Source: Bacteroidales bacterium
GTDB lineage: Bacteria > Bacteroidota > Bacteroidia > Bacteroidales > VadinHA17
Direction: 5' to 3'
DNA length: 64,000 nt
Assembly: GCA_018056245.1 (NCBI GenBank)
Contig: JAGPFZ010000001.1
Location: 79,241 to 143,240 of the forward strand
Shown here: positions 7,126 through 34,975 of the stretch, piece after piece
Layout: each line of letters begins with the position of its first letter
Numbering within the stretch: the first letter of the stretch is position 1
Made by a program: the position numbers and the translations under genes
The notes under the pieces: generated by a model
Seen by the model: only the letters and a program-made list of their open reading frames with translations
The model's database searches: none
What the model was told of the DNA's origin: nothing

Positions 7126-7294
7126 TTAATACACACACATTCAGTATATTATATATTATCTGAGTTTTTGAACCCAAACACTATTCTATATCTGTAAGTA
7201 TAAATACCTAATTAAAAATAGGCATTAAGCTCCTGTAATTCGTCGGACACTTTGGATATTTTTGTATTAGTGATATACGATTTTTACAGGTCAA

Positions 7295-8023
7295 ATGGAA
7301 GGTCTATATAATCAACTACTTGAAGATGTACGCTTTCGTGAAGGAATGAATGCATGTATAAATTGCGGGGTATGCACCGCAATATGTCCAGCTGCAGAGT
7401 TCTATAACTACGATCCTCGCAAGATCGTTAACGAAGTTCAAAAGAAAGACGACGAAGTAATTGAGGCTCTTCTGAAATCTGATACTATCTGGTACTGCGG
7501 TGAATGTATGTCGTGCAAAACGAGATGCCCCAGAGGAAACACACCGGGACTGATTATCATGGCTTTAAGAGCATTGTCTCAGAAAACCGGTTATTTCACC
7601 GAAAGTGAGAAAGGTCGTCAGCAGTTTGCAATAAAGAGAACTATCGGAGAAAATATATTCAATTATGGTTATTGTGTTGCCGCCTATGCGGTTAATCCTG
7701 ATATGCATCCCGAACAGGGGCCTATATGGAGATATATCATTGACCATTCAAAGGAAATTTATGAGAGGCTTGGGGTGAAATATGACGAGCTTGGCGAAGG
7801 CCCCCTGCGTAAGATACCCGAAGATGCGAAAGAAGAACTTCGCAAAATTTTTGAAGTTACCGGAGGCTCTGATTTTATGAAGGAAATCGAAAAACATTCG
7901 AAAAGAAAAGCAAAAGAACTTGGGATTCAGATTAGTGAAACCGGAATCAGGAACGAATATTTTACCAAAGTATATACTGAAAACAGTAACCACCATACCC
8001 TGAACGATCAGGAAGAATTATGA
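7295..8023 (+). CDS. HdrC-like 2x[4Fe-4S] protein
   Basis: 242 aa with two ferredoxin-type cysteine motifs, CINCGVCTAICP and CGECMSCKTRCP. Its stop overlaps the next start (ATGA). Confidence 0.75.
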   Translation: MEGLYNQLLEDVRFREGMNACINCGVCTAICPAAEFYNYDPRKIVNEVQKKDDEVIEALLKSDTIWYCGECMSCKTRCPRGNTPGLIIMALRALSQKTGYFTESEKGRQQFAIKRTIGENIFNYGYCVAAYAVNPDMHPEQGPIWRYIIDHSKEIYERLGVKYDELGEGPLRKIPEDAKEELRKIFEVTGGSDFMKEIEKHSKRKAKELGIQISETGIRNEYFTKVYTENSNHHTLNDQEEL

Positions 8024-9081
8024 ACAACGAAAACTATAAACGGATCTGGTCGGATTATCAGAAAGAGATTGCCGATGATCATTTTTTCTTTGTCAGGTCA
8101 TGTATTCGGCAGTCGTTTTTTCCGGGTTCCGAACAATTCTTTCTTCATTTGATGAGGAATATTCTCGGAAAGGATGTTTATGAAAATCCTTCACATACAA
8201 CTTGCACAGGGATTGGATATCATGCCGATATTGTTCCTTTCCCTACTATTATGACTGTTGTGGCAAGGCATTTTGCACTTATGAAAGAGGCAGGATATAA
8301 AAACCTTGCAATTTCTTGTGTGACATCTTTTGGCATTTATACTGAAATAATCGAAACATGGAAGCACTATCCCGAAGAACTTGAGAAAACGAGAGAATAT
8401 CTGTATAAAGCCACAGGCAGAGAATTCGACCTTCCCGAAAATATGGCACATACAAGCGATATTGTTTATAAATTCAGAAATGAAATTACTACAAAGTCAA
8501 GATACAGACTTGTTAACCAGTTTACCGGCAAGCCTCTTAAAGTTGTCGAACACGTTGGATGCCATTATTCGAAAATGTTTCCAAAATATGGTGTGGGAGG
8601 TGCTGAATTTCCGAAAGTTCTTTCAGGCATGGCCGAAGCGTGGGGAGGAGAAGTAATTGATTATCCCGAGCGGCGCCATTGCTGCGGCTTTGGTTTCAGG
8701 CAATATCTAGTACAGGCAAACAGGGGATATTCTCTATCTAACTCGGTCAAGAAATTTGAATCTATGAAACCATATAAACCCGACGTAATTATCACCAACT
8801 GTCCCGGATGCAATATGTTCATGGACAGGTGGCAATATACGATAAAAGAGATGGAGGGAAAGACCTATGGTGAAAACGGGCAATCCATACCTGTGCTTAC
8901 CTATGAAGAGCTCGCAGGGTTAGTGCTCGGCATCAATCCGTGGCAACTGGGTTTGCAATATCACATGGTTCAATCTGAGCCTCTGCTCGACAAACTTGGC
9001 ATACCGTATAACACTGCCGATAAATACAGGACGAAAGAAGGTAAGGAAATGCCGGTACCTGAAAACCTTATTAATGCCTGA
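8020..9081 (+). CDS. HdrB-like CCG-domain protein
   Basis: 353 aa. It has one canonical CCG-domain pattern (VGCHY...HCCGFG...NCPGC). An N-terminal copy is degenerate (C...CTG...SC). Confidence 0.75.
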   Translation: MNNENYKRIWSDYQKEIADDHFFFVRSCIRQSFFPGSEQFFLHLMRNILGKDVYENPSHTTCTGIGYHADIVPFPTIMTVVARHFALMKEAGYKNLAISCVTSFGIYTEIIETWKHYPEELEKTREYLYKATGREFDLPENMAHTSDIVYKFRNEITTKSRYRLVNQFTGKPLKVVEHVGCHYSKMFPKYGVGGAEFPKVLSGMAEAWGGEVIDYPERRHCCGFGFRQYLVQANRGYSLSNSVKKFESMKPYKPDVIITNCPGCNMFMDRWQYTIKEMEGKTYGENGQSIPVLTYEELAGLVLGINPWQLGLQYHMVQSEPLLDKLGIPYNTADKYRTKEGKEMPVPENLINA

Positions 9082-9086
9082 CTATA

Positions 9087-10109
9087 ATGAGCAATGTTGT
9101 TGTTATCGGTGCAGGTGTTGCAGGTCTCGAAGCAGCTGGGCAACTTGCACTTTCGGGTTATAAGGTAACAGTAGCTGAAAAAGGAGAAAAAATAGGAGGT
9201 AATCTTTGCAACTGGCATCACCTTTTCCCTGATCGGCGAAACAGCGAGGAGGTTTTAAATTATCTGAAAAAGCTTGTAAATAAGCCTGATATCACGATAC
9301 TCACAGGAAAGGAAATAACTAATTTATCGAGGAAAGACGGTAAGATATATTTGAGTTTTATAAAGGGCGATAAACTTGAAGCTGATGCTGTTGTAATTGC
9401 AACTGGATTCGACCTTTTTGATAGCCGCCTGAAAGAAGAATACGGATACGGTTTATATGATAATGTAATTTCCTCAGCCGACCTTGAAAAAATGTACAGA
9501 AACGGTGAGGTCAGAATGAAAAATGGGGAGATTCCTGAAAAGATTGGATTTATACATTGTGTAGGATCGCGGGATGAGAAAATAGGAAATCTGTATTGTT
9601 CAAAACTATGCTGTGTGACAGCCGTAAAACAGGCAATAGAGATCAGTGAAAAGATTAATGATATAAAGGCATTTTGTTTTTATATGGATATGCGTATGAG
9701 TGGGGTATTTTATGAAGAGTTATATCGAGAAGCACAGGAAAAGTACGGGATAAGCTTCATAAGAGGCAAAGTGTCTGAAATTTCTGAAAATATCAAAGGA
9801 AAACTTGTGGTAAAGGCAGAAGACACGCTTGCAGGCCGGCCGCTTAAAATGGAGCTCGATATGGTGGTTCTTATGGCTGGGATCGAAATGTCGAAGTCGG
9901 GAGAACATCTTGCCGACAATTCTTCTCTGCGACGTGGAGAGAACCGGTTTTTTTTACCTGCCGACAATCATTTCGGAAACAATGTGAGCAATATGAAAGG
10001 AGTTTTTTATGCAGGTTGCTGTGTGGCTCCAATGAATATAACTGAATCAATTTCTCATGCGAGAGCCGCAGTAAATGAGGTAATTAATTATTTGAGAAAT
10101 ATTTCATAA
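9087..10109 (+). CDS. short HdrA-like FAD-dependent oxidoreductase
   Basis: 340 aa. Dinucleotide-binding motif VVVIGAGVAGLEAA at the N-terminus and the HdrA-type cluster motif CVGSRDEKIGNLYCSKLCC. No ferredoxin or MvhD-type extra domains. Confidence 0.8.
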   Translation: MSNVVVIGAGVAGLEAAGQLALSGYKVTVAEKGEKIGGNLCNWHHLFPDRRNSEEVLNYLKKLVNKPDITILTGKEITNLSRKDGKIYLSFIKGDKLEADAVVIATGFDLFDSRLKEEYGYGLYDNVISSADLEKMYRNGEVRMKNGEIPEKIGFIHCVGSRDEKIGNLYCSKLCCVTAVKQAIEISEKINDIKAFCFYMDMRMSGVFYEELYREAQEKYGISFIRGKVSEISENIKGKLVVKAEDTLAGRPLKMELDMVVLMAGIEMSKSGEHLADNSSLRRGENRFFLPADNHFGNNVSNMKGVFYAGCCVAPMNITESISHARAAVNEVINYLRNIS

Positions 10110-10113
10110 CTGG

Positions 10114-10461
10114 ATGGGCAGATTTGGATATACATTATCGAAACCAAGAGTAATTGATTATGATGCAAATAACAGATGCATAGCTGAGTTCATTGCTGCA
10201 CATGAGCCTACTTTCAATTTATGTATAGAATGTGGCGGCTGTGCGGCAACCTGTACTGCAGGAAATTTTACATCGTTCAGTCTGAGAGAGATGAATATTC
10301 TTCTCAAACGTGGTGAGAATAGCGTCCCGCATGAAAAGATTCGTAGATGCATGATGTGTGGGAAATGTATTCTTGTCTGCCCTCGTGGAGTAAATACCAG
10401 AAATGTGATTGCTCTTGCAAGGGAAGCCTTTATGAAATTCGACAGAAATGAAAGACTTTGA
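10114..10461 (+). CDS. small 2x[4Fe-4S] ferredoxin-like protein (HdrC-like)
   Basis: 115 aa with the motifs CIECGGCAATC and CMMCGKCILVCP. It overlaps the next gene by 14 nt. Confidence 0.7.
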   Translation: MGRFGYTLSKPRVIDYDANNRCIAEFIAAHEPTFNLCIECGGCAATCTAGNFTSFSLREMNILLKRGENSVPHEKIRRCMMCGKCILVCPRGVNTRNVIALAREAFMKFDRNERL

Positions 10462-12355
10462 CATATTTGTAATACCTTTCAATGTAGGATTATACTTTAT
10501 CCTTATTTATTGTGTTGTGCGATTCATCGTCTGGTTCAGGCAGCTCTCACGTGCTGATAAGCTTAGGCTGCAGAGAGGATTTTTTGGCCGAGCATTTGGT
10601 CAAAGCCTGAAGGAAATATTTCTTGAGAGTCTGCTGCACAGAAAGATCATGAAGTCAAAGCCGGTTTTGGGTTACATGCATATGTCGCTTGCTTTCGGCT
10701 GGTTCCTTTTGATTTTGTTCGGCACAATTGAAGCAGACATCTTTAGTGAGAAACATTTGAATCCACCCTATAAGGCAATTTTTTTCAAGTTTTTCAATCC
10801 ATCTCATGGAGAATCGGGTTTTGCCCAATTCTGGTATTTTCTGATGGATCTCATTCTGGCTTTTATATTGTCGGGCCTCCTTCTGGCAATCATTAAAAGA
10901 TTCATTCCCAGTGTTGTTGGAATGAAAAAAACAACAAAACACAGATTGATTGACAGAATTGCACTAACGGCATTGTGGTTAATTTTTCCTTCCAGACTTA
11001 TTGCAGAGAGCCTGACATGTGGGGCAGGTGGTTTAGGAGGTTTTCTGACAGGTACAGCTGGTTCTTTTCTGGCTTCGTTTATGCCTGTGGAGAATCTGGC
11101 TTATCCATTCTGGTGGCTCTATTCTTTATCACTTGGAGTATTTTTTGTTCTTCTTCCCATAACACGATATATGCATATCCCAACTGAATTATTCCTCATT
11201 TTTATGAGAAACTCCGGCATAACTACAGGTGATAAGGCAGGTACTTTTTCAGAAGTGGAGATTCATTCATGCTCATCATGCGGGATATGTATAGATGCAT
11301 GCCAGATGAATTTTGTAACAGGGATTAGAAATATCCAGCCTGTTTACCTGAACCGGGCATTACGGAGAGATGAAAATGTGACAGAAATTGCTGAAAATTG
11401 TCTAATGTGTGGCAGATGTGAACAAGTATGCCCTGTTGGAATCGAGACTACAGCTATAAGGATGATTCAGCGAAGAAATATAAGTAGAGAGCCATTAATA
11501 AAGAACAAATGGTTTGGATATCTTCGTTACCGATCTATTCAGCCCAGAGATAAAGATAATTATGAGCCATCTTATGCTCTAGAGATGAAAGAAGATTTCA
11601 AGCGTGCCAATGTGATATATTTTGCTGGATGTATGACTCATCTTACTCCTGCTATTAAAGAGGCGATGAAGAAGATTTTCAACATTGCCGGAGATAAAAT
11701 CTGGTTTATGGATGAAGAAGGAGGAGCATGTTGCGGTAGGCCGCTTATGCTTGCGGGCCGCGATAGAGAAGCCAGAGAATTGATAAATTATAATTCAGAA
11801 CTAATAAGAAAATCGGGTGCAAAAACTCTGGTAACATCATGCCCAATCTGTTATAATGTTTTCAGAGAAAGTTATTATATTGATGCAGAAATACTTCACC
11901 ATACCGAATATATTAAACGTCTAATAGATGACAAATCTATCCGATTAAATTTTTCTGATAAGAAGGTAGTGTATCACGATCCATGTGAGCTTGGTAGAGT
12001 TGGAAAAATATATGATGAGCCGAGAGATATTCTTACATGGGTGGCTGAATTGATAGAACCAGTAGAAAGAAAGGAAAAAGCTCTTTGCTGCGGCGGAAGC
12101 CTTGCCAATATCAAACTCGACCCAAAGAAAAAATCGGCAATTGCTTTTGATACGATAAAGAGGCTATCGTCGGTAAACCCTGATTATATTGTTACTTCTT
12201 GCCCGCTATGCAAGAAGACATTTGCACAGGTCTCAGATATTAAAGTTGTGGATATAGCAGAAATAGTGGCTGAAGAAATTGCAGGTCTCCAGAGAAGAAA
12301 ACCATCTACTGTTTCATTGAATTTAAAAGAAATGGTCAGGCAATTATTAGATTGA
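10448..12355 (+). CDS. fused membrane (NarI/HdrE/DsrM-like) + 2x[4Fe-4S] + double-CCG (HdrD/DsrK-like) protein
   Basis: 635 aa. The N-terminal ~250 aa contain about 5-6 hydrophobic helices with conserved-looking His residues (YMHMS, RYMHIP). These are followed by CSSCGICIDAC and CLMCGRCEQVCP. Two canonical CCG patterns follow: GCM...ACCGRP...SCPIC and DPCELG...LCCGGS...SCPLC. Confidence 0.75.
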   Translation: MKDFDIFVIPFNVGLYFILIYCVVRFIVWFRQLSRADKLRLQRGFFGRAFGQSLKEIFLESLLHRKIMKSKPVLGYMHMSLAFGWFLLILFGTIEADIFSEKHLNPPYKAIFFKFFNPSHGESGFAQFWYFLMDLILAFILSGLLLAIIKRFIPSVVGMKKTTKHRLIDRIALTALWLIFPSRLIAESLTCGAGGLGGFLTGTAGSFLASFMPVENLAYPFWWLYSLSLGVFFVLLPITRYMHIPTELFLIFMRNSGITTGDKAGTFSEVEIHSCSSCGICIDACQMNFVTGIRNIQPVYLNRALRRDENVTEIAENCLMCGRCEQVCPVGIETTAIRMIQRRNISREPLIKNKWFGYLRYRSIQPRDKDNYEPSYALEMKEDFKRANVIYFAGCMTHLTPAIKEAMKKIFNIAGDKIWFMDEEGGACCGRPLMLAGRDREARELINYNSELIRKSGAKTLVTSCPICYNVFRESYYIDAEILHHTEYIKRLIDDKSIRLNFSDKKVVYHDPCELGRVGKIYDEPRDILTWVAELIEPVERKEKALCCGGSLANIKLDPKKKSAIAFDTIKRLSSVNPDYIVTSCPLCKKTFAQVSDIKVVDIAEIVAEEIAGLQRRKPSTVSLNLKEMVRQLLD

Positions 12356-22295: not shown

Positions 22296-22826
22296 TTACA
22301 ATTTAATTTTTAATGTTTTTGTAATTTCGTCAGATACTCCTGTAAGTACAGTAAAATTCATTCTTCCGTCATGTTCAAATGAGATTTGAAAGTCGGTAAT
22401 AAAATCGTTGTATTGCCCAAACTGAATACATTTAATTTGTATGTACTCATCGAGCAATTTTCTTTCTTCGCTGTTTTCTTTGCTATTAAACGCTTTCATA
22501 GCATCATTGAGTTTATCTTCTCCAAAAGTTTTCTTTATGATACCACAATTCCATGCAACTACGCCCATAGATATAATGCCCCTTGCATCTTCTTCGTCCT
22601 GTGCTGTAAATAAAATTGGTTTTATCATTTCGAGCAAAACGGTAGAAATTTTTTCTTTTCTGCATAGCAGTGACCTGTCAATAATTTTCACATTGTCTTT
22701 TTCTGCATTTTCAAGGAGCATTTGTTGGTCTTTGAGCAAATTATCATTTAAAAGGGTTTGCTTTTCCCTTTCTTTTTTTCTTTGCCTTAACATCTTTGCC
22801 AGTTTTATATTATTTGATTTAGACAT
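22296..22826 (-). CDS. hypothetical protein
   Basis: 176-aa ORF with no recognisable motif. Its ATG overlaps the stop of the decayed HTH gene upstream (ATGTCTAA). Confidence 0.5.
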   Translation of the reverse strand: MSKSNNIKLAKMLRQRKKEREKQTLLNDNLLKDQQMLLENAEKDNVKIIDRSLLCRKEKISTVLLEMIKPILFTAQDEEDARGIISMGVVAWNCGIIKKTFGEDKLNDAMKAFNSKENSEERKLLDEYIQIKCIQFGQYNDFITDFQISFEHDGRMNFTVLTGVSDEITKTLKIKL

Positions 22827-23095
22827 TTCTCTTTTTTTTGTATTTTAATTGTTTCTCAGCCACCTTCAATGCTGCAAGTCCAAGATCTTCATTTTCAATT
22901 TCGTAAAGTACCTTTTCACTTAAAAACTCAATAAGTAATTTTTCTGAATTAGCATTATAAAGCTTAGCTAATTTTTAAACCAGTTCTTTTGAGAATTTTC
23001 TCTCTCCGCGTTCCATTTTACTCAATACAGCCACGTCAATATCGGCTTGCATTGAGCCTTTCTCAATGATAATCCTTCTTTTTCTAAAATCCTTT
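22819..23095 (-). pseudogene. decayed XRE-family helix-turn-helix regulator gene
   Basis: The reverse-strand reading gives ...ADIDVAVLSKMERGERKFSKELV*KLAKLYNANSEKLLIEFLSEKVLYEIENEDLGLAALKVAEKQLKYKKKRNV, with an in-frame TAA at 22975-22977. The expected first helix (LEKEGLSLRKAQ) lies in a different frame upstream, which implies an additional frameshift near 23050. Confidence 0.45.
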
Positions 23096-23219
23096 TATAC
23101 AAGTTTTATCGATACTTTTTAATGGTATATAAATAATGCAAAAATACCTTCAGAAAAAATCAATTTTTCCGTGAGCCCGATTATACTGAAATCTTAAATT
23201 TGGTTAAATCAACACTATA

Positions 23220-23633
23220 TCAGAGATATTTTCTATCTTCTTCCGGAACTTCAAAATATTTTGAATAACGTTCGGCATCAGGACCTCTCAGTTCAAGCTC
23301 CGAACCTCTTATTTTGTAAGTGCATTTTTCACCGGCAATATCTGAAAAATAAATGTCATATTCTTTTCCGTCTTCATCTATCATAATTATTCTTACCAGA
23401 TGACTATATTTTGCACTGTTGAGCAATGAATGGCATATGGGACATGTATAGAGATATTCCTCGCCCTCTTTCAACGGGAACGTGGGATGAGTAGTAACAG
23501 TATAATTTCCCAGTTCCGGATTAAGGTAAACAAGGCCTCTCTGGGAACTGTTCTTTTTTTGTGCAGCCAGGACGATGGAAGACTTAACATTAAGGTGTCC
23601 CCTGCATGCTTTACATAAATATTCAACTGCCAT
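23220..23633 (-). CDS. hypothetical zinc-ribbon protein, last gene of the hydrogenase operon
   Basis: The ORF track gives 23220..23678. The internal ATG at 23633 (MAVEYLCKAC...) leaves only an 11-nt overlap with the protease gene. It has a CxxC...CPIC cysteine pair. Confidence 0.5.
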   Translation of the reverse strand: MAVEYLCKACRGHLNVKSSIVLAAQKKNSSQRGLVYLNPELGNYTVTTHPTFPLKEGEEYLYTCPICHSLLNSAKYSHLVRIIMIDEDGKEYDIYFSDIAGEKCTYKIRGSELELRGPDAERYSKYFEVPEEDRKYL

Positions 23634-24090
23634 AATGTACCTCCTCTTTATTAATTTTTTTAATAATTTCTTTAGCAACTTTTGTTACAAGATACGAAAT
23701 TTTTTCGCCAAAAATAATAGTTTCGGGTTGAATTCCGAGAATAAAAACTTTTGCAGGGAAAAAATCGGAAATCCGTTTCAGTGAGATATTGTGTGTGTTA
23801 AAAGAAAAATCCCGTATCTCGTCAACAGGCAACAGCCTGCATGTTCCGGGTTGGGCATTCATATCAACACAGTCAATCAGAACAATAATATCCGGATTGA
23901 GTGAATTTATTTTTCCAATATAGTTTTCGATGCTTACTTCAACGGTAAGGGATATAATATTTTTCATGGGTTTTATTCGCCGGCTGATATAAACTCCCAC
24001 GCCGTCGTCACTTTTGAGCACATTACCTATGCCGGCAAAAAGAATTGTTTTGTCTGCCTCAGCCAGAATCTTATCTAGAGCAGGCAACAT
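23623..24090 (-). CDS. hycI: [NiFe]-hydrogenase maturation endopeptidase (HycI/HyaD family)
   Basis: Carries the family motif ILFAGIGNVLKSDDGVGVY. The ATG at 24090 overlaps the stop of the upstream gene (ATGA). The ORF track's longer start (24123) is probably an extension. Confidence 0.8.
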   Translation of the reverse strand: MLPALDKILAEADKTILFAGIGNVLKSDDGVGVYISRRIKPMKNIISLTVEVSIENYIGKINSLNPDIIVLIDCVDMNAQPGTCRLLPVDEIRDFSFNTHNISLKRISDFFPAKVFILGIQPETIIFGEKISYLVTKVAKEIIKKINKEEVHYGS

Positions 24091-24698
24091 CAAAGGTATT
24101 TTATAAGTACCAGTCTCAGGCAATTAGGGCAAAGGACATTAAACATATCTTTCCTTTTGAGCTGGTCTTTCACTTCCACTTCAATATCCTGACCTTCCGA
24201 AAGCTTTAGTTTCTCATTGAGCACATTAAGATCGAGTATGGAGGAATATGCCTTAGGGCCAAGTTTTTTATATATATATTGAAGATGTTCTTTGGTAGTT
24301 ATCACGGCTCCGCAATTTTTGCATATTAAAAGCTCTTTTTCCTGGTAATCAATATTTTCCGTCCTGTCGGTTACAGCAAGATCAAAGATTTTGTCGGATA
24401 GTTTAACTCCTTTCTGTGTTATGCAGTGTTCTTCACACTGACCGCAGAAGATACATTTACCATAGTCTCTTTTTATTATTCTTAATCTTTTTTCGACGTC
24501 GTCGGTAAAGGTTATTGCGCAGGGCGGACAAACATTTGCGCATGTCTCACACCCAACACAGTTATCGTTATCAACCACAGGCCTGCCTCTGAATTTTTCA
24601 AATGGAATATGTTCTTCGTAAGGGAATCTTGTTGTATACGCGGGTGTGAACAATGATATCAATGCCTCTTTCAATTCCCGAATCTTAGGGTATTTCAT
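24090..24698 (-). CDS. NuoI/MbhN/HycF-like 2x[4Fe-4S] subunit with C-terminal Cys-pair extension
   Basis: 202 aa with the motifs CVGCETCANVCP and CIFCGQCEEHC. The extra C-terminal ~75 aa contain CKNCG...CPNC. Confidence 0.8.
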   Translation of the reverse strand: MKYPKIRELKEALISLFTPAYTTRFPYEEHIPFEKFRGRPVVDNDNCVGCETCANVCPPCAITFTDDVEKRLRIIKRDYGKCIFCGQCEEHCITQKGVKLSDKIFDLAVTDRTENIDYQEKELLICKNCGAVITTKEHLQYIYKKLGPKAYSSILDLNVLNEKLKLSEGQDIEVEVKDQLKRKDMFNVLCPNCLRLVLIKYL

Positions 24699-25012
24699 TT
24701 TGCATCATTTTTATAGTCATCCTTTACACTTTTGTCGGTCATTTTTACGCCGAAATGATATGTACCTCTGACGAGTGCATGTGCTGCAACGGTAGCGCTG
24801 AAAAACAACAGAGGTATAGCGATAAGGCCTTTTATGCCAGCATCGGTAAAACCGAAATGGATAAAAACTCCCAGCAAAATACTACAGTATCCCATTGTGA
24901 CACATTTTGTTGCTGCCTGCAGCCTGTTATACACATCAGGCAGCCTTAAAAGTCCTATGCATCCAAAAATATTGAACAGGATTCCGATGCTAATAATAAT
25001 CAGTTCGATCAT
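24695..25012 (-). CDS. Mrp/Mnh antiporter subunit G-like (MbhC-like)
   Basis: 105 aa with 3 TM helices and the MnhG signature LLRLPDVYNRLQAATKCVTMG. Confidence 0.8.
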   Translation of the reverse strand: MIELIIISIGILFNIFGCIGLLRLPDVYNRLQAATKCVTMGYCSILLGVFIHFGFTDAGIKGLIAIPLLFFSATVAAHALVRGTYHFGVKMTDKSVKDDYKNDAK

Positions 25013-25014
25013 AT

Positions 25015-25281
25015 CTATTCGTTTAATTTTTTTCCGCTCAGATATTTGGCAAGGGTAAGGGTTCCGATAAAGCTGAATATAATCCAGGCTATTCCAATAT
25101 CAATGATGAATTTTTTCCCTGTAAGAATAGTAATAATGGCACATACGCCTACAACAAGTATTCCGAAGATGTCGATTGCCACCATTCTGTCGGGGATAGT
25201 TGGACCTCTGATTATCCTGTAAAGGCAGACTCCGCTCAGGGCAATCTGCGTATAAAGAAGTATTTCAAGCCATAAATTCAT
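25015..25281 (-). CDS. Mrp/Mnh antiporter subunit F-like (MbhB-like)
   Basis: 88 aa with 3 TM helices, sitting between the E- and G-like subunits. It overlaps the upstream gene by 4 nt. Confidence 0.7.
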   Translation of the reverse strand: MNLWLEILLYTQIALSGVCLYRIIRGPTIPDRMVAIDIFGILVVGVCAIITILTGKKFIIDIGIAWIIFSFIGTLTLAKYLSGKKLNE

Positions 25282-25766
25282 TCCGCAAAATTTTTAATAT
25301 ATTTTTCAAACGGGCTCATAATTATTCTTGAGTATTCTTCTGGGTTATCCGACCTGATATATATCCAGTGTATGTAAAAGTAGTCGCCTATTATATCAAC
25401 GGTGAGTGTGCCTGGTGTCATGGTTATTGAATTTGCAAGAAGGGTTTTTGCAAAGTCAGATTTCAGGTTTGTCTTTACTTTGACAATTCCCGGTCTTATG
25501 GGAAGTTTTGGGTGAAGCACTCTGTATGCTACGTCGAAATTTGCTTTTATGCACGACCAGATGAAGGTTACAAGGTAAACCAAAAACCAGAACCAGCGGT
25601 GGGGCTGTAAAAATTTGCCTACACCTGTGAAATAATACCTTGCAAAAATTATTGTGCATAAGAGTGATGCGGCTGTACCGACAATAATGTTAGGAACCGT
25701 TATCTTGAAGGTAAGCAGTAACCAGAAAATCAGGCAAAGTATAAAAAAGGCAATGTTTCTCTTCAT
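25278..25766 (-). CDS. Mrp/Mnh antiporter subunit E-like (MbhA-like)
   Basis: 162 aa with two N-terminal TM helices and a soluble C-terminal part. Size and order fit MnhE. Confidence 0.7.
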   Translation of the reverse strand: MKRNIAFFILCLIFWLLLTFKITVPNIIVGTAASLLCTIIFARYYFTGVGKFLQPHRWFWFLVYLVTFIWSCIKANFDVAYRVLHPKLPIRPGIVKVKTNLKSDFAKTLLANSITMTPGTLTVDIIGDYFYIHWIYIRSDNPEEYSRIIMSPFEKYIKNFAE

Positions 25767-25767
25767 A

Positions 25768-27306
25768 TTACATTCCGGTTATTGATATTGTGTAAAGCTG
25801 GGAATCTGTCAGTATCCGTATAGCCGGTGTGAGTATCACGTCTCTTACCTGTGGCAGAGCTATAAGGCTCAACACAAGGCAAAGGACCGCCAGGGTAACC
25901 ATGCTGAACACCATAGGGAACGGCACTTCTTTAGGGCTGTTTTCACTCTTTTCGATTTCTTTGTTATAGAATGCATAACGCTGAAATTTCATGAATGAAG
26001 CAAGTGTAACGATACTTACTATTACTGCAATAACTGCCAGGAGGTAGAATTTTCCAATAATAGCGGCTATAATTATTATCAGTTTGCTGAAGAAGCCGTT
26101 GAATGGCGGTATTCCGGATATTGCCATAGAAGCTACAAATGATGTGGACGATGTGGCAGGCATCAGTCCGGCCAGTCCGCCCATTGATTTAAGGTCACGC
26201 GTCCCTGTTCGGTACTCTATTGCTCCAGCGTTGAGGAACAGAAGGCTCTTAAAGGCGGCATGGTTGATTAGGTGAAACAATCCTCCTGCTATTGCAAGGG
26301 AAGCAACTTCGGGTTTTGTCCCCCGTGCAAGCAGTATCATTCCGATTCCAGCCGACATAACCACGTAGCCCATCTGGCTTATGCTATGGTAAGCCAGCAG
26401 CCTCTTGATATCCCACTGGCCTATCGCAAGCAATACACCTACAGCCATGGATAATGCGCCGAGTGTTGTTATCAGTACAGCCATTTCTTCAGTTATAATA
26501 AACATATTGAAGAAGAGCCTTAAAATGACATATATTCCGGCAGCCTTGATAAGCACGCCTGAAAGCATTGCAGAGATAGGCGAAGGAGCCGAGGAGTGTG
26601 CATCGGGCAGCCATGCATGGAAAGGAATGATTGCTGCTTTAAGCCCAAAACCACTGAGTAAAAGTAATTGCACAGGAATATAAAATGATTTTTCAGTATT
26701 TGTACCCAGTGCAGCTTTAATATCAGCAATGTTAAGTGTTTTTGCTTTCCAGTAAATGAAACTTATACCAATAAGGATGAGCATAGATGCAAGACCACCG
26801 AGAACCTGGTATTTGAAAGTAGCCTCGAGCTGTTCTCTCTCCACACCAAATGCCACAAGAGCATAGGAAGATATTGCAGAAATCTCGAGAAAAACATAAA
26901 TATTGAAAATATCACCGCTGAGCACTATTCCATTCATTCCGGCAATCATCAGGCAGAAAAGGGAATAAAAATAATTTTCGGAGGTGTACTGACTGACGTA
27001 TGTAAATGAGTAAACTATTGACAGGAAACCTATTGTATTTATTATACATAATAATATTGCGGAAAGGCTGTCGAGTACCATATAAATGCCGATAGGTGTT
27101 CCATTTACCGGTTCCCATCCGCCCACTTTATAAACGCTGATTTTTCCGGACAATCCCGCAATGGAAATATAACTTATTACCATAAGGAATAATAGTACGG
27201 TCATGCCGATATACTTATTGGCGCTCCTGAAAAATTTCCCAATGATCATTATCAGGAAAGCACCGCCCAGCGGTACGGCAACGAATAATGGAATAAGCGG
27301 ATTCAT
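25768..27306 (-). CDS. MrpD/NuoN/NuoM-like antiporter-type subunit
   Basis: 512 aa and polytopic, with proton-conducting-transporter family motifs (FHAWLPDAHSSAPSPISAMLSGVLIK...LLAYHSISQMGY). Confidence 0.85.
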   Translation of the reverse strand: MNPLIPLFVAVPLGGAFLIMIIGKFFRSANKYIGMTVLLFLMVISYISIAGLSGKISVYKVGGWEPVNGTPIGIYMVLDSLSAILLCIINTIGFLSIVYSFTYVSQYTSENYFYSLFCLMIAGMNGIVLSGDIFNIYVFLEISAISSYALVAFGVEREQLEATFKYQVLGGLASMLILIGISFIYWKAKTLNIADIKAALGTNTEKSFYIPVQLLLLSGFGLKAAIIPFHAWLPDAHSSAPSPISAMLSGVLIKAAGIYVILRLFFNMFIITEEMAVLITTLGALSMAVGVLLAIGQWDIKRLLAYHSISQMGYVVMSAGIGMILLARGTKPEVASLAIAGGLFHLINHAAFKSLLFLNAGAIEYRTGTRDLKSMGGLAGLMPATSSTSFVASMAISGIPPFNGFFSKLIIIIAAIIGKFYLLAVIAVIVSIVTLASFMKFQRYAFYNKEIEKSENSPKEVPFPMVFSMVTLAVLCLVLSLIALPQVRDVILTPAIRILTDSQLYTISITGM

Positions 27307-27309
27307 CTG

Positions 27310-27648
27310 TTATCCTCTTAGATTTTTAATCTCTCTTATATCCAGGGTTTTATATTTTCTGTAAATCCTGATTATCACTGCCATAAGCATTGCCGTAGTT
27401 GCCAGTCCTATTACAATAGCAGTCAGCACCATAGCTTGTGGCAAGGGGTCAACATAAATTACGTCGGGTTTTGCAGGGTCAACTATAGGAGGAACACCGT
27501 TTTTTACATATCCGATTAAGGCAAGAAAAAGAAAAGTGCTGAACTCCATGATTGACAATGATATTGCAATCTTCATAAGATTTCTTCTTGTGATAACGCC
27601 ATAAAGCCCGACAAGAAACAAAACAAAGCAGAGCAGGTAGAGTATCAT
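27310..27648 (-). CDS. MrpC/NuoK-like subunit (MbhG-like)
   Basis: 112 aa with 3 TM helices and a NuoK-like pattern. It overlaps the upstream gene by 4 nt. Confidence 0.8.
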   Translation of the reverse strand: MILYLLCFVLFLVGLYGVITRRNLMKIAISLSIMEFSTFLFLALIGYVKNGVPPIVDPAKPDVIYVDPLPQAMVLTAIVIGLATTAMLMAVIIRIYRKYKTLDIREIKNLRG

Positions 27649-28082
27649 CTTGTAATTTCTTCTTTAAATATTAATAATGCAAGAAAAATTGTTAGTATAG
27701 AAGCAGCGACTTCAATACCGATGAAAATGTTATACAGCGGGATTACTCCGGCACTTATGAGTTCACCAACTTTACCTTTAGGCAGCCAGTTCAGGAAAAA
27801 GACTTTTGTGCCGAGTGCCATACCGATCAGGGCAATTATTAAAGCGACAAGTACTCCAAAGTTTTCTGTAATGGTGGAGCCAGTCTCTTCCCTGGTAAGA
27901 TGCATAAAGTCGCTTCCAAAGGCAAGAATCAGAAGAATGAATGAGCCGGCAACGATTACACCGCCGGCAAAACCACCTCCGGGTGTCAGATGCCCGTGTA
28001 CAATCACATATACGCCGTAAAGAAAAACCATTCCACAAATCAACTGTGTTGTTTTCTTTACTATTACGGTCATTCCTTTCAT
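27645..28082 (-). CDS. MrpB-like subunit (MbhF-like)
   Basis: 145 aa with the motif HGHLTPGGGFAGGV, typical of MnhB-type subunits. Confidence 0.75.
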   Translation of the reverse strand: MKGMTVIVKKTTQLICGMVFLYGVYVIVHGHLTPGGGFAGGVIVAGSFILLILAFGSDFMHLTREETGSTITENFGVLVALIIALIGMALGTKVFFLNWLPKGKVGELISAGVIPLYNIFIGIEVAASILTIFLALLIFKEEITR

Positions 28083-28115
28083 TTTGTATTGTTTTCTTTT
28101 CTTAATTAACTATAT

Positions 28116-28643
28116 TCATTTCCTCCCCTTAATCCTTAAGATAGTCAGCACTCCCAGTACTGCCGTAACCAGCACTGTTGCCTCGCCAAGCGTATCATAT
28201 CCTCTGAAATCGAACACGACTCCCGTCACAAGGTTTGCACTTCCGGTTTTTTCAGCGGCACCTTCGATGTAGTGCTTTGCCATTCTAAGAGTCCCTTCGC
28301 CAAATTTATCGAGCGATCCTGTAGCCGTTTTCAGGAAGAAAAAAATCGCTATTACCAGAATCAATGCTGTGGCAATATTTATATATCCCTGTGGATCGGG
28401 TTTTGTGAATGGTTCGTCGCGGGTGCAGTCGAGCACTACAGCAACCATGATTACCAGAGTGATTGTTTCGACCACAATCTGAACTATTGCCAGATCGGGG
28501 GCTTTTAATAGCAGGAAACATATAACCAGTCCATACCCTACGATACTGCAGGAAATAACTGCCGACAGAAGGTCTTTTGCATGGATGGCAAAAATTGCTC
28601 CGAGAATCATCAAAACCAGTATAACCGATAGTGCAACTTCCAT
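28116..28643 (-). CDS. MrpA C-terminal-domain-like / MbhD-MbhE-like membrane subunit
   Basis: 175 aa. N-terminal TM helices are followed by the MnhB-domain motif [21 protein letters not shown]. Confidence 0.65.
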
Positions 28644-28655
28644 ATAGAAGCTTAA

Positions 28656-30506
28656 TTATAACATTATCAATAACATAATAAGTAATCCGGCAAATACCCA
28701 TAGTACGTAAGTGGATAATACGCCTGTATGCATTTTACTGAACAGGCCGCTGCAATAGAGGAGAGCCTGTTTCGATAAGTCATAGATATCGAACCATTTT
28801 TCCTGAGCCTTCCTGTATATTGCCGAGAAAAAGCCGAATTCGGTGATCGTCTTATAAAATTCCGGTGCAGGGTAAGCAGCTTTGTCGTAAAATTTCTCTC
28901 CTCCGATAAAACTGTCAGCAACACGGAATTTGCGTAAGCTTGTTGCAAGATAGATTAATATTCCAAGCAGAATTGAAACAAGTATCATGAATGATGCCAG
29001 GCTTGAGTTATATATGCCTGAGAATTTAAATGTGCCAGTCACGGGCATAAGCAGACGCGGAACAACAACTCCTGTGGCAAACACACCGAAAAATATACAA
29101 ATTAGTGCAATAATTGCAAGAGGGAACCACATCAGCGCGGGCACTTCCTTAATATTTTCCAATTCATTTTTTCGTCTTCCAAGAAAAATCCCGCCGATGA
29201 ATTTTATGAAGCTTGCCAGGGTAAATGCCGAACCGAGGACTGCCAGCACAAGCCACAGCACCCATAATTTATTAGGTATTCCCGAGCCTCCGCCGAAATC
29301 AATTATTGCCTGATAAATCATCCATTTCGAAGCGAATCCGTTCAGAGGAGGGATTCCGGAAATAGACATGGCACAAATCAGAGCAGATATGAATGTAACC
29401 GGCATAGCTTTCGAGAGGCCGCCAAGGTCTTCTATTTCGGTTTTTCCTGTGCGTTGTTCAACAGCACCTGCCGCAAGGAAAAGTCCACTTTTATAAAAAG
29501 CATTGTTCAACATGTGAAAAAGCCCTGCTGCAATGCCAATAAATGAACCCAGACTAAGTCCGACAATCATATAGCCTACCTGTGAAACAGCATGGTAGCC
29601 CAGAAGCCTTTTGTAGTTATGTTGTACAAGGGCCATCATTACAGCCGTAATAATCGTAATAACACCAAGTGTCAAGAGGAGCAGGGTGACCCACTCGCCC
29701 GGCACGAATATATCTGTTAAAATTCTGGTAAGTAGATATATACCAAGCAGTTTATCGAGTGAGGCCGGCATATATGCTGACGATGACGCCGGTGCATCCT
29801 TTGTATAATCAGGCACCCATGTATGGAACGGGAAAGCTCCGGCTTTCGTAAAACTGCCTGTGAGCATTGCAAGGAAAGCTGTTAACGCAAGAGCACTACC
29901 TGTGGGGACCTGCATTTCACTCATATTAAGCGAGCCTGTCATCTTCCACAATATTGCAATGCCCATTATCATAATAGTATCGGACGAACCGATCAAGATA
30001 AGGGTTTTTTTAGCCGTGGCAGAACCTTCCTCGCTTTTGTCCTGAATGAGTTTGTAAAGTGTCAAACCAAGGATGCCCCAGAAAGTGATGAAAACGAGCA
30101 TGTTATCAGCCAGTGCGGCGCCGTAGGAAAAACCAAGTGTTAAAAGGAAATAGGGATAGTAGTTATTGATTCTATGATTACCCTTATATGCCAGAGAATA
30201 AAGATTTATGAGGAAACTGAAAAAACTTATAAACAAAACTATAAGCTTTGCAAGATTATCAACATTGAATGTAAAAAATGATGTAATTTCCGGGGCTATG
30301 TAAGGTGGAAGAAAGATTGCGGGAACAAAGCTTTCCAGATTCATCTTTACATTTCCCGATCGGTATACGATTATTGTAAACCAGAATGTCACTGTGGTTA
30401 TTGCAAGTGAAACGATTCCCTTGAAAAGTTTGAGTTTGTCGGGAACCAGGAATAATAGCAGCCCTGTAATTACTGGAAGAAATAATATTAAGAAGTATTC
30501 GTTCAT
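28656..30506 (-). CDS. MrpA/NuoL-like antiporter-type subunit (MbhH-like)
   Basis: 616 aa and polytopic, with the motifs FHTWVPDYTKDAPASSSAYMPASLDKLLG and LLGYHAVSQVGYM of the complex-I antiporter-like family. Confidence 0.85.
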   Translation of the reverse strand: MNEYFLILFLPVITGLLLFLVPDKLKLFKGIVSLAITTVTFWFTIIVYRSGNVKMNLESFVPAIFLPPYIAPEITSFFTFNVDNLAKLIVLFISFFSFLINLYSLAYKGNHRINNYYPYFLLTLGFSYGAALADNMLVFITFWGILGLTLYKLIQDKSEEGSATAKKTLILIGSSDTIMIMGIAILWKMTGSLNMSEMQVPTGSALALTAFLAMLTGSFTKAGAFPFHTWVPDYTKDAPASSSAYMPASLDKLLGIYLLTRILTDIFVPGEWVTLLLLTLGVITIITAVMMALVQHNYKRLLGYHAVSQVGYMIVGLSLGSFIGIAAGLFHMLNNAFYKSGLFLAAGAVEQRTGKTEIEDLGGLSKAMPVTFISALICAMSISGIPPLNGFASKWMIYQAIIDFGGGSGIPNKLWVLWLVLAVLGSAFTLASFIKFIGGIFLGRRKNELENIKEVPALMWFPLAIIALICIFFGVFATGVVVPRLLMPVTGTFKFSGIYNSSLASFMILVSILLGILIYLATSLRKFRVADSFIGGEKFYDKAAYPAPEFYKTITEFGFFSAIYRKAQEKWFDIYDLSKQALLYCSGLFSKMHTGVLSTYVLWVFAGLLIMLLIML

Positions 30507-30513
30507 ACTGTCA

Positions 30514-31716
30514 TCAAAGTTTTTTCATTATCTCGCGAGTTTTTTGAGCCGAGGCTTTTATAATTTCATCTCCGTTCATTATTTTGTCGCCTGTAGTGAT
30601 ATCATAAGCTACAGCAAGTCTTTCCGTACAACAGTAGCAAGGGTCAACGGCAGCAAGGGTAAGTATTGCGTCGGAGATACTTTGTCCGATGCACGACTTT
30701 TTGAAAGTTGAAATATTCATATAGCTTGGTGCCCTTATTTTGTGCCGCGCAGGTGAATTGGAGCCGTCGGAAAAGACACAATGGAACACCTCGCCCCTTG
30801 GAGCTTCGGCTCGTCCTGTCCCTATACCTTCTGGTATATTCTTAATTTTTAATTCAATATCACCTTCTTTTTCCTTCTTCAGTCTGTCGAGGCATTGTTC
30901 AATTATTGATATTGATTCTGATATTTCAAGAAGTCTGACCTGAGCTTTGGCAAAGACATCACCTGTTACGGCTGTAATTACTTTCCAGTTAACGAGAGGA
31001 TAGGCAGCGTAGGGGTCGTCTCTCCGCACATCTATTGCAATTCCCGATGCCCTTGCAGTGGGGCCTACAGCACCAAAATCAATTATATCTTCCTTGGTAA
31101 GAACACCCACTCCTTTTGTACGTGCATGAAATACCGGGTCATCCATAACCGCTCCGGTTAGAAGTTCGGTCTTTTTCTTTACATCGGACAGAACTTTGCT
31201 AATGGCATTTATTTTTGATTCTTCTATATCTCTTCTTACTCCGCCCACTTTGAACATTGCATAACTGTTACGGTTGCCTGTAATCATTTCGAACAGGTCG
31301 AGAACTGGTTCACGGTATTTCCACGCCCACATGAAAAGGGTATTGTAGCCCAGAAAGTGTCCGGCAAGTCCTACCCAGAGAAGATGACTGTGAATCCTTT
31401 CAAGTTCGGCTATGATGCTTCTTATATACTTTGCTCGGTTTGGTATTTCGACTCCGCATATTTCTTCAACTGTATTTGCAAATGCGAAAGGATGAGATGT
31501 TGAGCATATTCCGCATATTCTTTCCACAAGGAAGAATACCTGATCGTACGTCTTGGATTCGGCCAGTTTTTCGATACTACGGTGGTTATATCCCGTTTCC
31601 CATTTGATATCTTTTACAATTTCACCGTCGCAATAGAGCTTGAAAAGCTCAGGTTCTTCCTGTAATGGATGATAAGGGCCAACCGGTATGAGAAACTTGT
31701 TGCTCATATTTTTCAT
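30514..31716 (-). CDS. group-4 [NiFe]-hydrogenase large subunit (NuoD/MbhL/HycE-like)
   Basis: 400 aa. N-terminal Ni-Fe ligand motif RICGICSTSH and C-terminal motif DPCYCCTER. A 34-residue tail follows the C-terminal motif. Confidence 0.9.
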   Translation of the reverse strand: MKNMSNKFLIPVGPYHPLQEEPELFKLYCDGEIVKDIKWETGYNHRSIEKLAESKTYDQVFFLVERICGICSTSHPFAFANTVEEICGVEIPNRAKYIRSIIAELERIHSHLLWVGLAGHFLGYNTLFMWAWKYREPVLDLFEMITGNRNSYAMFKVGGVRRDIEESKINAISKVLSDVKKKTELLTGAVMDDPVFHARTKGVGVLTKEDIIDFGAVGPTARASGIAIDVRRDDPYAAYPLVNWKVITAVTGDVFAKAQVRLLEISESISIIEQCLDRLKKEKEGDIELKIKNIPEGIGTGRAEAPRGEVFHCVFSDGSNSPARHKIRAPSYMNISTFKKSCIGQSISDAILTLAAVDPCYCCTERLAVAYDITTGDKIMNGDEIIKASAQKTREIMKKL

Positions 31717-32150
31717 TTAAACTCTTTTCTGTATGGATACACACCTTCGGGCCAGTTGCCGTCTGAAAGAAGCTTCTCCATGTTAGGGTGATTGACAAAA
31801 TCTATTCCGAACAATTCATGTATCTCACGTTCAATCCAGTTCGATGCATTTAATATATTCGAAAGAGATTCTATCCGGGGATTTTCCTGACTGAGAATTA
31901 CATGTATGTTCAGCACAAGCCCTGTTTCGTCTTTGCTGAAGTGATAATATATCTCAAAGCCTTTCTTTGTGTGCAGTGCCGATGCAATAATAAACCTGCA
32001 TCCAGCCTCTTTGTATAGAAATTCGGTTATCTGAACTATAGAAGATGGATTTATAGTAACAACATATCTTTTGTCATGCCTTTTTACCGTTTCGGTAATA
32101 TCAGCATTAAACTTGTTGTTCAATTCCTTTATGATTGCTTCCGTATCCAT
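31713..32150 (-). CDS. NuoC/MbhK-like 30-kDa-type subunit
   Basis: 145 aa with the motif ASNWIEREIHELFGIDFVNHP, typical of the NuoC/HycE N-terminal domain. It overlaps the large subunit gene by 4 nt. Confidence 0.8.
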   Translation of the reverse strand: MDTEAIIKELNNKFNADITETVKRHDKRYVVTINPSSIVQITEFLYKEAGCRFIIASALHTKKGFEIYYHFSKDETGLVLNIHVILSQENPRIESLSNILNASNWIEREIHELFGIDFVNHPNMEKLLSDGNWPEGVYPYRKEFK

Positions 32151-32237
32151 TTATTTAATAATCAATTACTTAAACTATCTCATTATCAATATGTTATATT
32201 ATCTCTTTACCCCTCTATACTTAATACCTCTGTACCA

Positions 32238-32269
32238 TTTCTCCCATTCTTCCTTTCTCACATTCTTCC
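32238..32269. repeat. 16-nt tandem direct repeat inside the intra-operon spacer
   Basis: TTTCTCCCATTCTTCC at 32238-32253 is followed directly by TTTCTCACATTCTTCC at 32254-32269, with one mismatch. It lies in a 134-nt non-coding gap that is strongly pyrimidine-rich on the plus strand, so purine-rich in the mRNA. Confidence 0.6.
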
Positions 32270-32284
32270 ATCACCCATTTTTTC

Positions 32285-32698: not shown

Positions 32699-32709
32699 CT
32701 CTTAATTTT

Positions 32710-33642: not shown

Positions 33643-33645
33643 TTT

Positions 33646-34143: not shown

Positions 34144-34147
34144 AGCA

Positions 34148-34969: not shown

Positions 34970-34975
34970 GCGAAA

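Follow-up and report, generated by a model that had tools for sequence, protein, structure and literature searches.

The 64,000-nucleotide stretch of a Bacteroidales genome analysed here (contig JAGPFZ010000001.1, positions 79,241 to 143,240; hereafter the window) carries at 7295-12355 five tightly packed open reading frames (ORFs), all on the plus strand and in the order HdrC-HdrB-HdrA-ferredoxin-fusion, which on balance we read as encoding one membrane-anchored, menaquinone-linked complex of the Bacteroidia that is akin to heterodisulfide reductase (Hdr) and probably oxidises a cytoplasmic dithiol or persulfide. The proteins are homologous to HdrC, HdrB, HdrA and the membrane protein EtfD, they keep the ligands of their cofactors across orthologs, and their genes form a conserved operon. 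An earlier reading of the same DNA (the original prediction) had proposed from five linked plus-strand genes a quinone-linked Hdr-like complex joining a cytoplasmic flavin site to the membrane pool. ORF calls bear out the coordinates, lengths and overlaps of these genes, Pfam and NCBIfam searches bear out the domain content of the five proteins, and the proposal itself is supported by heme- and quinone-site residues of the fusion protein and by motifs of the C1/B1/A type, with substrate and direction being what we infer from homology.

A conserved five-gene unit

The cluster encodes, in order, an HdrC-like subunit with two cubane [4Fe-4S] sites that resembles sHdrC1 of the sulfur-oxidising Hdr-like (sHdr) system (7295-8023, 242 residues), an HdrB-like subunit with a degenerate N-terminal and a canonical C-terminal CCG domain (8020-9081, 353 residues), a short HdrA-like flavoprotein with an FAD-binding fold and one [4Fe-4S] site (9087-10109, 340 residues), a helical ferredoxin of HdrC type that has two [4Fe-4S] sites but lacks a C-terminal extension (10114-10461, 115 residues), and a fusion protein comprising a membrane domain, two cubane sites and two CCG domains (10448-12355, 635 residues). 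The first two genes overlap by 4 nt and the last two by 14 nt, while gaps of 5 and 4 nt separate the second gene from the third and the third from the fourth. None of the five proteins reaches a curated equivalog cut-off in NCBIfam, and an exact-sequence look-up of the 635-residue fusion protein found no record.

The genomic context was surveyed in related taxa, as the original prediction had suggested, and the five-gene order proved to be kept in Lentimicrobiaceae and Alistipes genomes as well as in metagenomes. Homologs of the fusion protein numbered 6448 at E <= 1e-10, the best 120 of them being full-length with 63-91% identity, and the named relatives among the best matches are Bacteroidales metagenome-assembled genomes (MAGs). 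Species-representative genomes supplied 23 loci, and wherever their contigs are of sufficient length the genes follow one another as C-B-A-ferredoxin-fusion, even at identities as low as about 46% (Lentimicrobiaceae and other Bacteroidetes MAGs). A divergent branch from Rikenellaceae and Alistipes MAGs, with about 35% identity to the fusion protein of the window, includes three Alistipes loci (L024-L026) in which the identical five-gene order stands among wholly different neighbours. A metagenome scan with the HdrB motifs, using as query a mixed alignment of Bacteroidales HdrB and sHdrB1, matched at least 600 stretches and gave at least 558 relatives; the matches listed are all close relatives (at least 66% identity), and neither type II sHdr nor intermediate architectures are among them. 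Eighty metagenome loci were kept, 47 of them with room for the whole cluster, which is complete and co-oriented in 44 of the 47; the three exceptions are L070, L087 and L102, described below. Across these 80 loci conservation is highest in HdrB (median identity 70%) and lowest in the fusion protein (48%), and the neighbouring genes vary from locus to locus while the five genes stay together. Since the order recurs in about 80 independent loci, the arrangement is not due to chance, and the five genes form a unit that is conserved and complete in itself. Every named member of the ortholog clade belongs to the Bacteroidia, Breznakibacter included, and all are MAGs; the cluster, which is found in digester, sediment and gut Bacteroidia and whose proteins are annotated only as "(Fe-S)-binding protein", appears to be specific to the Bacteroidia.

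Some of these loci deserve separate mention. Locus L007 (JBLNAO010000171.1) bears the label Chloroflexota; nonetheless the entire cluster is present there, together with the lipoprotein gene and purL arranged as in the window and with 60-72% identity to the Bacteroidales proteins, so that the label is likely to reflect bin contamination. In the Alistipes loci L024-L026 an operon of fumarate reductase/succinate dehydrogenase type was recognised by Pfam some 4-5 kb downstream of the cluster; it encodes an unannotated protein of 228-251 residues, a 648-residue flavoprotein and a 247-residue Fe-S subunit, and between it and the cluster lie GH43, uvrC and 5-FTHF cyclo-ligase genes. Locus L023 has a gene for a BPL_LplA_LipB-family ligase (11025-11807, minus strand) 1 kb downstream of the cluster and adjoining rsfS, the usual site of the biotin ligase gene birA. 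A link to lipoate was rejected because of this adjacency and because the ligase gene is not conserved at the other loci, and the protein is probably a housekeeping biotin ligase.

The cytoplasmic subunits

For comparison with sHdr we used a type I locus (L027) with the layout DsrE-C1-B1-A-H-C2-B2-...-LbpA-TusA-SoxT. The HdrC-like subunit contains the Pfam domain Fer4_8, finds its best NCBIfam match in HdrC (94 bits against a cut-off of 350) and a PDB match in HdrC (5odc_C), and its eight Cys residues are all invariant in 14 orthologs. It is closer to sHdrC1 of the reference locus (31% identity, E 1e-28) than to sHdrC2 (E 1e-8).

The HdrB-like subunit shows a single Pfam CCG stretch (residues 177-268), its best NCBIfam match is HdrB (141 bits against a cut-off of 450) and it matches the methanogen HdrB 9sfi_C with 108 bits. 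Alignment confirms that, as the original prediction had held, one CCG domain is canonical and the other degenerate: the C-terminal domain has C181, C221, C222, C261 and C264, while the N-terminal domain has only C28, C62 and C100, with CT in place of CCG and CxxS in place of CxxC, a pattern kept in 16 orthologs. The protein matches sHdrB1 over its whole length (E 3e-30) but sHdrB2 over the C-terminal half only, and a multiple alignment shows three motifs common to the Bacteroidia proteins and sHdrB1, namely (T/S)CT..YH at the CCG position, CxTSFGxY at the CxxC position and CCGFGFR, all of which are absent from methanogen HdrB, from sHdrB2 and from the CCG domain of the fusion protein itself. 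The two differ in the C-terminal CxxC, which is canonical in the HdrB of the window and DTGC in sHdrB1, and in Cys111 of sHdrB1, which has no counterpart here; overall, HdrB is 27% identical to both references, methanogen HdrB and sHdrB1, with equal scores. Six histidines (H59, H68, H116, H144, H178 and H182) are invariant in the 16 orthologs, and H68 aligns with the YH of sHdrB1. Were the degenerate N-terminal CCG domain to hold a metal site of an unusual kind, H68 could be its fourth ligand beside C28, C62 and C100.

The HdrA-like protein is of the short type, with FAD and one [4Fe-4S] site and without ferredoxin domains. It carries the Pfam domain Pyr_redox_2, and its best NCBIfam match is HdrA2 (267 bits against a cut-off of 1100). 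Residues 2-338 align with residues 2-342 of Hyphomicrobium sHdrA (6tjr; 171 bits, overall identity 29%), while the alignment to methanogen HdrA is confined to the thioredoxin-reductase-like core (residues 98-332), which is 40% identical to methanogen HdrA as against 31% to sHdrA; with sHdrA of the reference locus the match has E 5e-56. The cluster-binding motif noted earlier is present as CVGSRDEKIGNLYCSKLCC (residues 158-176), and its C158, C171, C175 and C176 are invariant in 20 orthologs. The 115-residue protein is a di-cluster ferredoxin whose eight Cys residues are all invariant in 22 orthologs and whose best NCBIfam and PDB matches are to the N-terminal part of HdrC; it is 37% identical to sHdrC1 over 83 residues and has zero similarity to sHdrH, which in the reference locus is a 282-residue protein without an Fe-S motif.

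The original prediction had likened the gene order to that of sHdr loci. The likeness stands for the C-B-A part, whose best matches are C1, B1 and A and which, to judge from the alignments, has derived motifs in common with sHdrC1-B1-A; it does not extend to the small protein as a counterpart of sHdrH, which here is an HdrC-type ferredoxin. One could suppose a genuine sulfur-oxidising sHdr system, converting sulfane sulfur to sulfite, for which LbpA, the lipoylation enzymes and TusA/DsrE would be encoded at unlinked sites and in which electrons would leave through the fusion protein in place of sHdrC2B2 or B3-EtfAB-EMO. The C1-B1-A order, the short HdrA and the sHdrB1-specific motifs all speak for it, type II sHdr likewise ends in a protein with membrane and CCG domains feeding menaquinone (PMC11094781, PMC4378227), and at locus L070 (7472-15607) a gene for an HdrB 68% identical to that of the window lies beside two DsrE-family genes, in the order DUF4405 membrane protein, HdrB, two DsrE-family genes, MvhD, and QmoA-, QmoB- and QmoC-like genes, the qmoC model aligning full-length there with 157 bits against a cut-off of 300.

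However, lbpA is described as an inevitable partner of the shdr genes (PMC6067878) and sulfur transferases as always present (PMC11094781), and tblastn with genuine sHdr LbpA, DsrE, TusA, SoxT, sHdrH and lipoate-maturation proteins gave no match in the neighbourhoods covered, the window and 26 related loci amounting to 421 kb. Pfam scans of the 43 flanking ORFs of the window found no genes for LbpA, TusA, DsrE, Qmo, Dsr, Apr or Etf; with the tblastn search of the window, they agree with the earlier remark that sulfur-carrier, Qmo and Dsr genes are missing nearby. Since lbpA and the sulfur transferases, published as constant partners, were not found at the loci searched, the cluster lacks features that define sHdr, despite its sHdr-like C-B-A core. 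The cluster also has no sHdrH homolog, the C-terminal CCG domain of HdrB is canonical here and altered in sHdrB1, and the hosts look like H2-producing anaerobic fermenters. As for L070, it is the sole link to a sulfur transferase that was seen, none of its accessory genes reappears at another locus, and a lipoprotein-type signal is present in one of the two DsrE proteins; being a single locus, it was set aside as evidence for a sulfur substrate. Taken together, we consider a sulfur-oxidising sHdr system quite improbable.

The membrane fusion protein

Pfam recognises two CCG stretches and a Fer4 dicluster in the fusion protein, and no Pfam model covers its hydrophobic N-terminus. A first AlphaFold2 model, built from 33 close homologs, was too poor for use, with a mean predicted local distance difference test score (pLDDT) of 59.7; the model used here came from a 52-sequence alignment that included divergent representatives (pLDDT 89.4, predicted template modelling score, pTM, 0.85). 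This gives the transmembrane topology that had been called for: residues 1-258 (10448-11221) form a five-helix membrane domain of NarI/EtfD type with predicted helices at 6-32, 72-99, 124-152, 167-194 and 214-238. There follow a Fer4 dicluster part (11243-11485; Fer4_8 at residues 272-332), whose Cys residues are invariant and which aligns to the clusters D3 and D4 of EtfD, and a non-cubane-cluster-binding domain (residues 385-612, 11600-12283) made of two canonical CCG half-domains with ten Cys residues.

In a Foldseek search of the PDB the sole full-length fold match was Mycobacterium smegmatis EtfD (9ojn; E 1.6e-19, template modelling score 0.64 by query and 0.56 by target), the remaining matches, HdrB and LutA among them, covering the CCG half only. 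A family profile likewise aligns to EtfD residues 11-747 (E 1.5e-86) and, over the membrane region, to NarI (1q16_C, E about 4e-6). By this profile alignment the candidate heme b ligands H78 and H243 correspond to His78 and His241, the heme b ligands of EtfD, and W85 and F232 correspond to Phe85 and Phe230, which contact the putative menaquinone in EtfD (PMC13083937). H78 (in YMHMS) and H243 (in RYMHIP), the histidines that had been singled out as possible heme ligands from the sequence, are invariant in 33 orthologs, as is H64. Both the heme ligands and the quinone-contact aromatics are thus kept, where their loss would have spoken against the proposed quinone link. H103 and H120 are conserved among the closest relatives only and there is no His at the outer end of the fifth transmembrane helix; because only H78 and H243 could be placed as a heme pair, the alignment makes a single proximal heme more likely than the di-heme arrangement of NarI and HdrE. 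H64 lies in an amphipathic cytoplasmic helix before the second transmembrane helix, which is not where a heme ligand would be expected.

The non-cubane clusters of EtfD and EMO are non-catalytic, a His filling the open site of one cluster and the other having lost one Cys, and both proteins have been shown experimentally to act as electron wires to menaquinone (PMC13083937; bioRxiv 10.64898/2026.08.18.745454). In the fusion protein the ten Cys residues C395, C428, C429, C465, C468, C513, C547, C548, C585 and C588 are invariant or nearly so among 52 sequences, C429 standing in place of Thr539 of EtfD and I467 (in a CPIC motif) in place of His583. As aligned, the fusion protein lacks the substitutions that make the EtfD site non-catalytic and retains an Hdr-type ten-Cys site. 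The next tier of sequences, which includes fused HdrD-like proteins of archaea, consists of 640-727-residue proteins with 22-28% identity and likewise ten Cys residues, its named members being archaeal and one of them annotated as HdrD. Given the full-length match to EtfD and the retention of the ten Cys residues, the fusion protein combines the EtfD fold with a site of HdrD type. The original prediction had drawn a likeness to DsrMK, HmeCD and HdrED; the closest solved relative is EtfD/EMO and not DsrMK, and the NCBIfam models for DsrK (65.8 bits against a cut-off of 400) and TfrB match only in part.

That EtfD is the only full-length match in both structure and sequence could suggest that the fusion protein works as a common EMO/EtfD, with an EtfAB partner encoded at another site, and that its place beside Hdr-like genes is without functional meaning. 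This we regard as very improbable, considering that the five genes stay together with overlapping frames in about 80 loci and down to 35% identity while their neighbours change, that etfAB occurs in none of the loci annotated with Pfam (the window, L020, L023 and L024-L026), and that the non-cubane site differs from that of EMO/EtfD at the diagnostic positions.

The same site raises a further alternative, a reductive role resembling that of HdrDE or DsrMK, in which the complex would act as a terminal reductase, a cytoplasmic disulfide or trisulfide being reduced at the ten-Cys site by menaquinol, perhaps with a second donor entering through HdrA. All ten Hdr Cys residues are indeed kept and the Thr and His substitutions of EtfD are absent (PMC13083937; bioRxiv 10.64898/2026.08.18.745454), and the HdrD annotation within the nearest, archaeal-named outgroup as well as the partial matches to the DsrK and TfrB models point in the same direction. 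Menaquinol (about -74 mV, PMC10734219) is, however, a weak donor for ordinary disulfides, and only one heme is predicted here, as against the two employed in the trans-membrane redox loops of HdrE and NarI (bioRxiv 10.64898/2026.08.18.745454). Moreover, DsrC, sulfite reductase and other acceptor systems are not linked to the cluster in the window and the DsrK score of 66 bits falls far below its cut-off, so that a reductive function seems to us decidedly unlikely, and oxidation of a dithiol or persulfide with reduction of menaquinone remains the reading that we prefer.

Discussion

A proposed menaquinone-linked Hdr-like complex

In the complex that we propose, a dimer of the short FAD/[4Fe-4S] HdrA would form the core, as in sHdrA and HdrABC. 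On one side it would carry the HdrC-HdrB pair, the sHdrB1-like HdrB being the likely substrate site, and on the other the 115-residue ferredoxin would connect it to the 635-residue fusion protein. Electrons would then pass from HdrA through the ferredoxin to the non-cubane clusters, on to the two cubane clusters and one heme b (H78/H243), and finally to menaquinone; the 14-nt overlap of the ferredoxin and fusion genes and the entry of electrons at the non-cubane end in EtfD and EMO (PMC13083937; bioRxiv 10.64898/2026.08.18.745454) both fit such a path. Most likely a cytoplasmic dithiol or a protein persulfide would be oxidised and menaquinone reduced, which we infer to be the thermodynamically easier direction, and fumarate reductase would re-oxidise the menaquinol. 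The reasoning follows that put forward for type II sHdr with EtfAB and EMO, minus the Etf step. Because its full ten-Cys Hdr-type site is kept, the fusion protein may, in addition, use a disulfide as a substrate of its own. In Alistipes an operon of fumarate reductase/succinate dehydrogenase type with flavoprotein and Fe-S subunits lies about 4 kb from the cluster, in keeping with the proposed route.

Several points weigh against this proposal. Subunit contacts, heme binding, use of quinone and direction are all extrapolated from homologous proteins. Overall similarity places neither HdrA nor HdrB inside the sHdr clades, HdrA being 40% identical to the methanogen protein and 31% to sHdrA, and tblastn found no candidate substrate carrier linked to the cluster in the window or the 26 related loci. 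Finally, in two metagenome loci (L087, 7312-9071, and L102, 4369-6178) an HdrC-HdrB pair 57-68% identical to that of the window stands alone between unrelated flanks (GH97, PMT_2 glycosyltransferase), without HdrA, ferredoxin or fusion genes nearby, so that the C-B module can exist without these partners in its vicinity.

The presence of HdrA also invites a reading as a flavin-based bifurcating or confurcating complex, in which electrons of a mid-potential donor bound to HdrB would be divided by the HdrA flavin, some going to high-potential menaquinone through the fusion protein and others to a low-potential ferredoxin through the 115-residue ferredoxin, as in EtfABCX or in what has been proposed for Qmo. 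HdrA is the bifurcating subunit of methanogen HdrABC (PMC5861303) and the core of the present protein is 40% identical to it; three separate Fe-S arms would converge on one flavoprotein, menaquinone-coupled bifurcation is known in EtfABCX (PMC10734219), and the window also encodes ferredoxin-linked hydrogenases. The short HdrA is nevertheless devoid of the ferredoxin domains (N-terminal, inserted and C-terminal) that bifurcating HdrA possesses, and the overlap of the ferredoxin gene with the fusion gene suggests an internal wire and not an exit arm, so that we think bifurcation unlikely. A wider proposal, in which the flavin of the short HdrA would couple oxidation of a cytoplasmic dithiol or persulfide carrier to reduction of menaquinone, possibly bifurcating the second electron to ferredoxin via the small HdrC-like protein, and the cluster would constitute a new energy-metabolism module of anaerobic Bacteroidia, organisms of the gut Alistipes type among them, appears similarly doubtful as a whole.

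Setting of the cluster in the window

The genes adjoining the cluster encode an M28 peptidase, a metallophosphatase lipoprotein, a small lipoprotein and PurL, in line with the phosphatase, lipoprotein and purL neighbours listed in the original prediction. Upstream, a candidate promoter -7 element TATTTTTG (7257-7264, plus strand) lies about 31 nt before the first ATG; it is a consensus match only, to the Bacteroidetes -7 consensus TAnnTTTG. Sigma-70 promoter and terminator scans gave no excess over shuffled sequences, and the leader upstream of the cluster matched no Rfam family.

By Pfam, the ferredoxin-linked hydrogenases of the window are a group 4 membrane [NiFe] enzyme and a HydABC-type [FeFe] enzyme, and these genes fit an H2-evolving anaerobe. 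The [NiFe] cluster (22296-35968, minus strand) includes Mrp-antiporter-like subunits and encodes a HycI protease, MnhE, two Proton_antipo_M proteins, MbhD/E, the NiFe large subunit (Complex1_49kDa) and a NuoH-like subunit. Upstream, the cluster ends with genes for a DHODB-type Fe-S protein that binds FAD/NAD (34148-34969) and for a Fer4_22 protein (34976-35968); in domain content these two proteins resemble the beta and gamma subunits of sulfhydrogenase or Nfn-type enzymes. The region 36083-46150 (plus strand) begins with a gene for a Rex-like regulator (Put_DNA-bind_N and CoA_binding), followed by hypF, hypD, hypE and hypB and then by the genes of the HydABC-type NADH-linked [FeFe] hydrogenase, encoding a thioredoxin-like 2Fe-2S protein (42687-43151), a NuoF-like subunit (43166-44329) and the large subunit (44369-46150).

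Novelty and significance

Full-text literature searches found no published description of this Bacteroidia cluster and no characterised complex that has the five-gene architecture, and the Bacteroidota go unmentioned in the papers on EMO, EtfD and the distribution of sHdr. The interest of the cluster lies chiefly in its abundance, its hybrid nature and the question of its substrate. If electrons from a thiol or sulfur carrier do enter the menaquinone pool through it, the cluster would represent an unrecognised branch in the anaerobic respiratory chain of the Bacteroidales. As a natural hybrid of sHdr and EMO/EtfD, both of them currently being studied, with an Hdr-type ten-Cys site on an EtfD-type scaffold, it could help to test what makes non-cubane clusters catalytic as opposed to serving electron transfer only, and what sHdrB1-type subunits do without LbpA. 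Were the bifurcating scheme true after all, it would define a new class of membrane-bound flavin-based bifurcating enzyme, in which sHdrB1-type catalytic subunits work without lipoate-binding proteins.

Comparison with known systems

Among documented systems the nearest is the type II sHdr cluster (shdrC1B1AH-B3-etfAB-emo), known from Sulfobacillus, Chloroflexota and Actinobacteriota (PMC11094781; PMC4378227, there as hdr cluster II). Both begin with HdrC1-HdrB1 and a short HdrA, both include a membrane protein of some five to six transmembrane helices with two CCG domains that is a proposed menaquinone donor, and both have the degenerate N-terminal CCG motifs of HdrB1 type, the comparison of these motifs being made with a type I sHdrB1. 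The cluster of the window differs in having no sHdrH, sHdrB3, EtfAB, LbpA/GcvH-like protein, lipoate ligase, TusA or DsrE, with the HdrC-type ferredoxin in the place of H, B3 and Etf, in the canonical C-terminal CCG domain of its HdrB, and in its hosts, which are anaerobic fermentative Bacteroidia and not known sulfur oxidisers.

The fusion protein shares with EtfD of M. smegmatis (PDB 9OJN, PMC13083937) and EMO of S. aciditrophicus (bioRxiv 10.64898/2026.08.18.745454) a single chain comprising a five-helix NarI-type domain, two cubane clusters and a non-cubane domain, with aligned heme b ligands and menaquinone-contact aromatics and probably one heme, as in the mycobacterial protein. Unlike EtfD, it keeps the ten Hdr Cys residues, lacks the long disordered C-terminal tail (635 as against 1042 residues), and is encoded not beside etfAB but with HdrC, HdrB, HdrA and a ferredoxin. 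HdrDE likewise combines a cytochrome b module in the membrane with two cubane clusters and a CCG domain of ten Cys residues. Its HdrE, however, is a separate di-heme subunit, whereas here the module is fused and a conserved pair of His residues that could hold a distal heme was not found; we know, moreover, of no bacterium that makes CoM-S-S-CoB or methanophenazine. A fusion of transmembrane and HdrD parts with the same architecture has been described as HdrF of Desulfobacterium autotrophicum, where the genes lie beside glpAB or etfAB and not beside HdrCBA (PMC2702500). The proteins named 'HdrF' in papers on Geobacter and Thiomargarita were considered as the same protein and rejected, being a different, NAD(P)H-binding subunit.

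More distant systems differ in their parts. DsrMK(JOP) is set apart by a DsrK match far under the equivalog cut-off and by the dsr genes, which Pfam scans did not find in the window, and the soluble bifurcating HdrABC by its full-length HdrA of about 650 residues with N-terminal, inserted and C-terminal ferredoxin domains, as against 340 residues here. QmoABC, like the present cluster, ties HdrA-like flavoproteins to the quinone pool through an HdrC-like Fe-S module and a cytochrome b protein. Qmo has two HdrA-like subunits and no CCG domain, and in QmoC the Fe-S part comes first and the membrane domain second. The window, in contrast, has a single HdrA-like gene, CCG domains and the opposite domain order, Pfam scans found no aprAB nearby, and the qmoC model matches the ferredoxin parts only (46 and 23 bits against a cut-off of 300). 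Each part of the cluster comes from a known family, and type II sHdr and Qmo already offer precedents for the logic of the whole.

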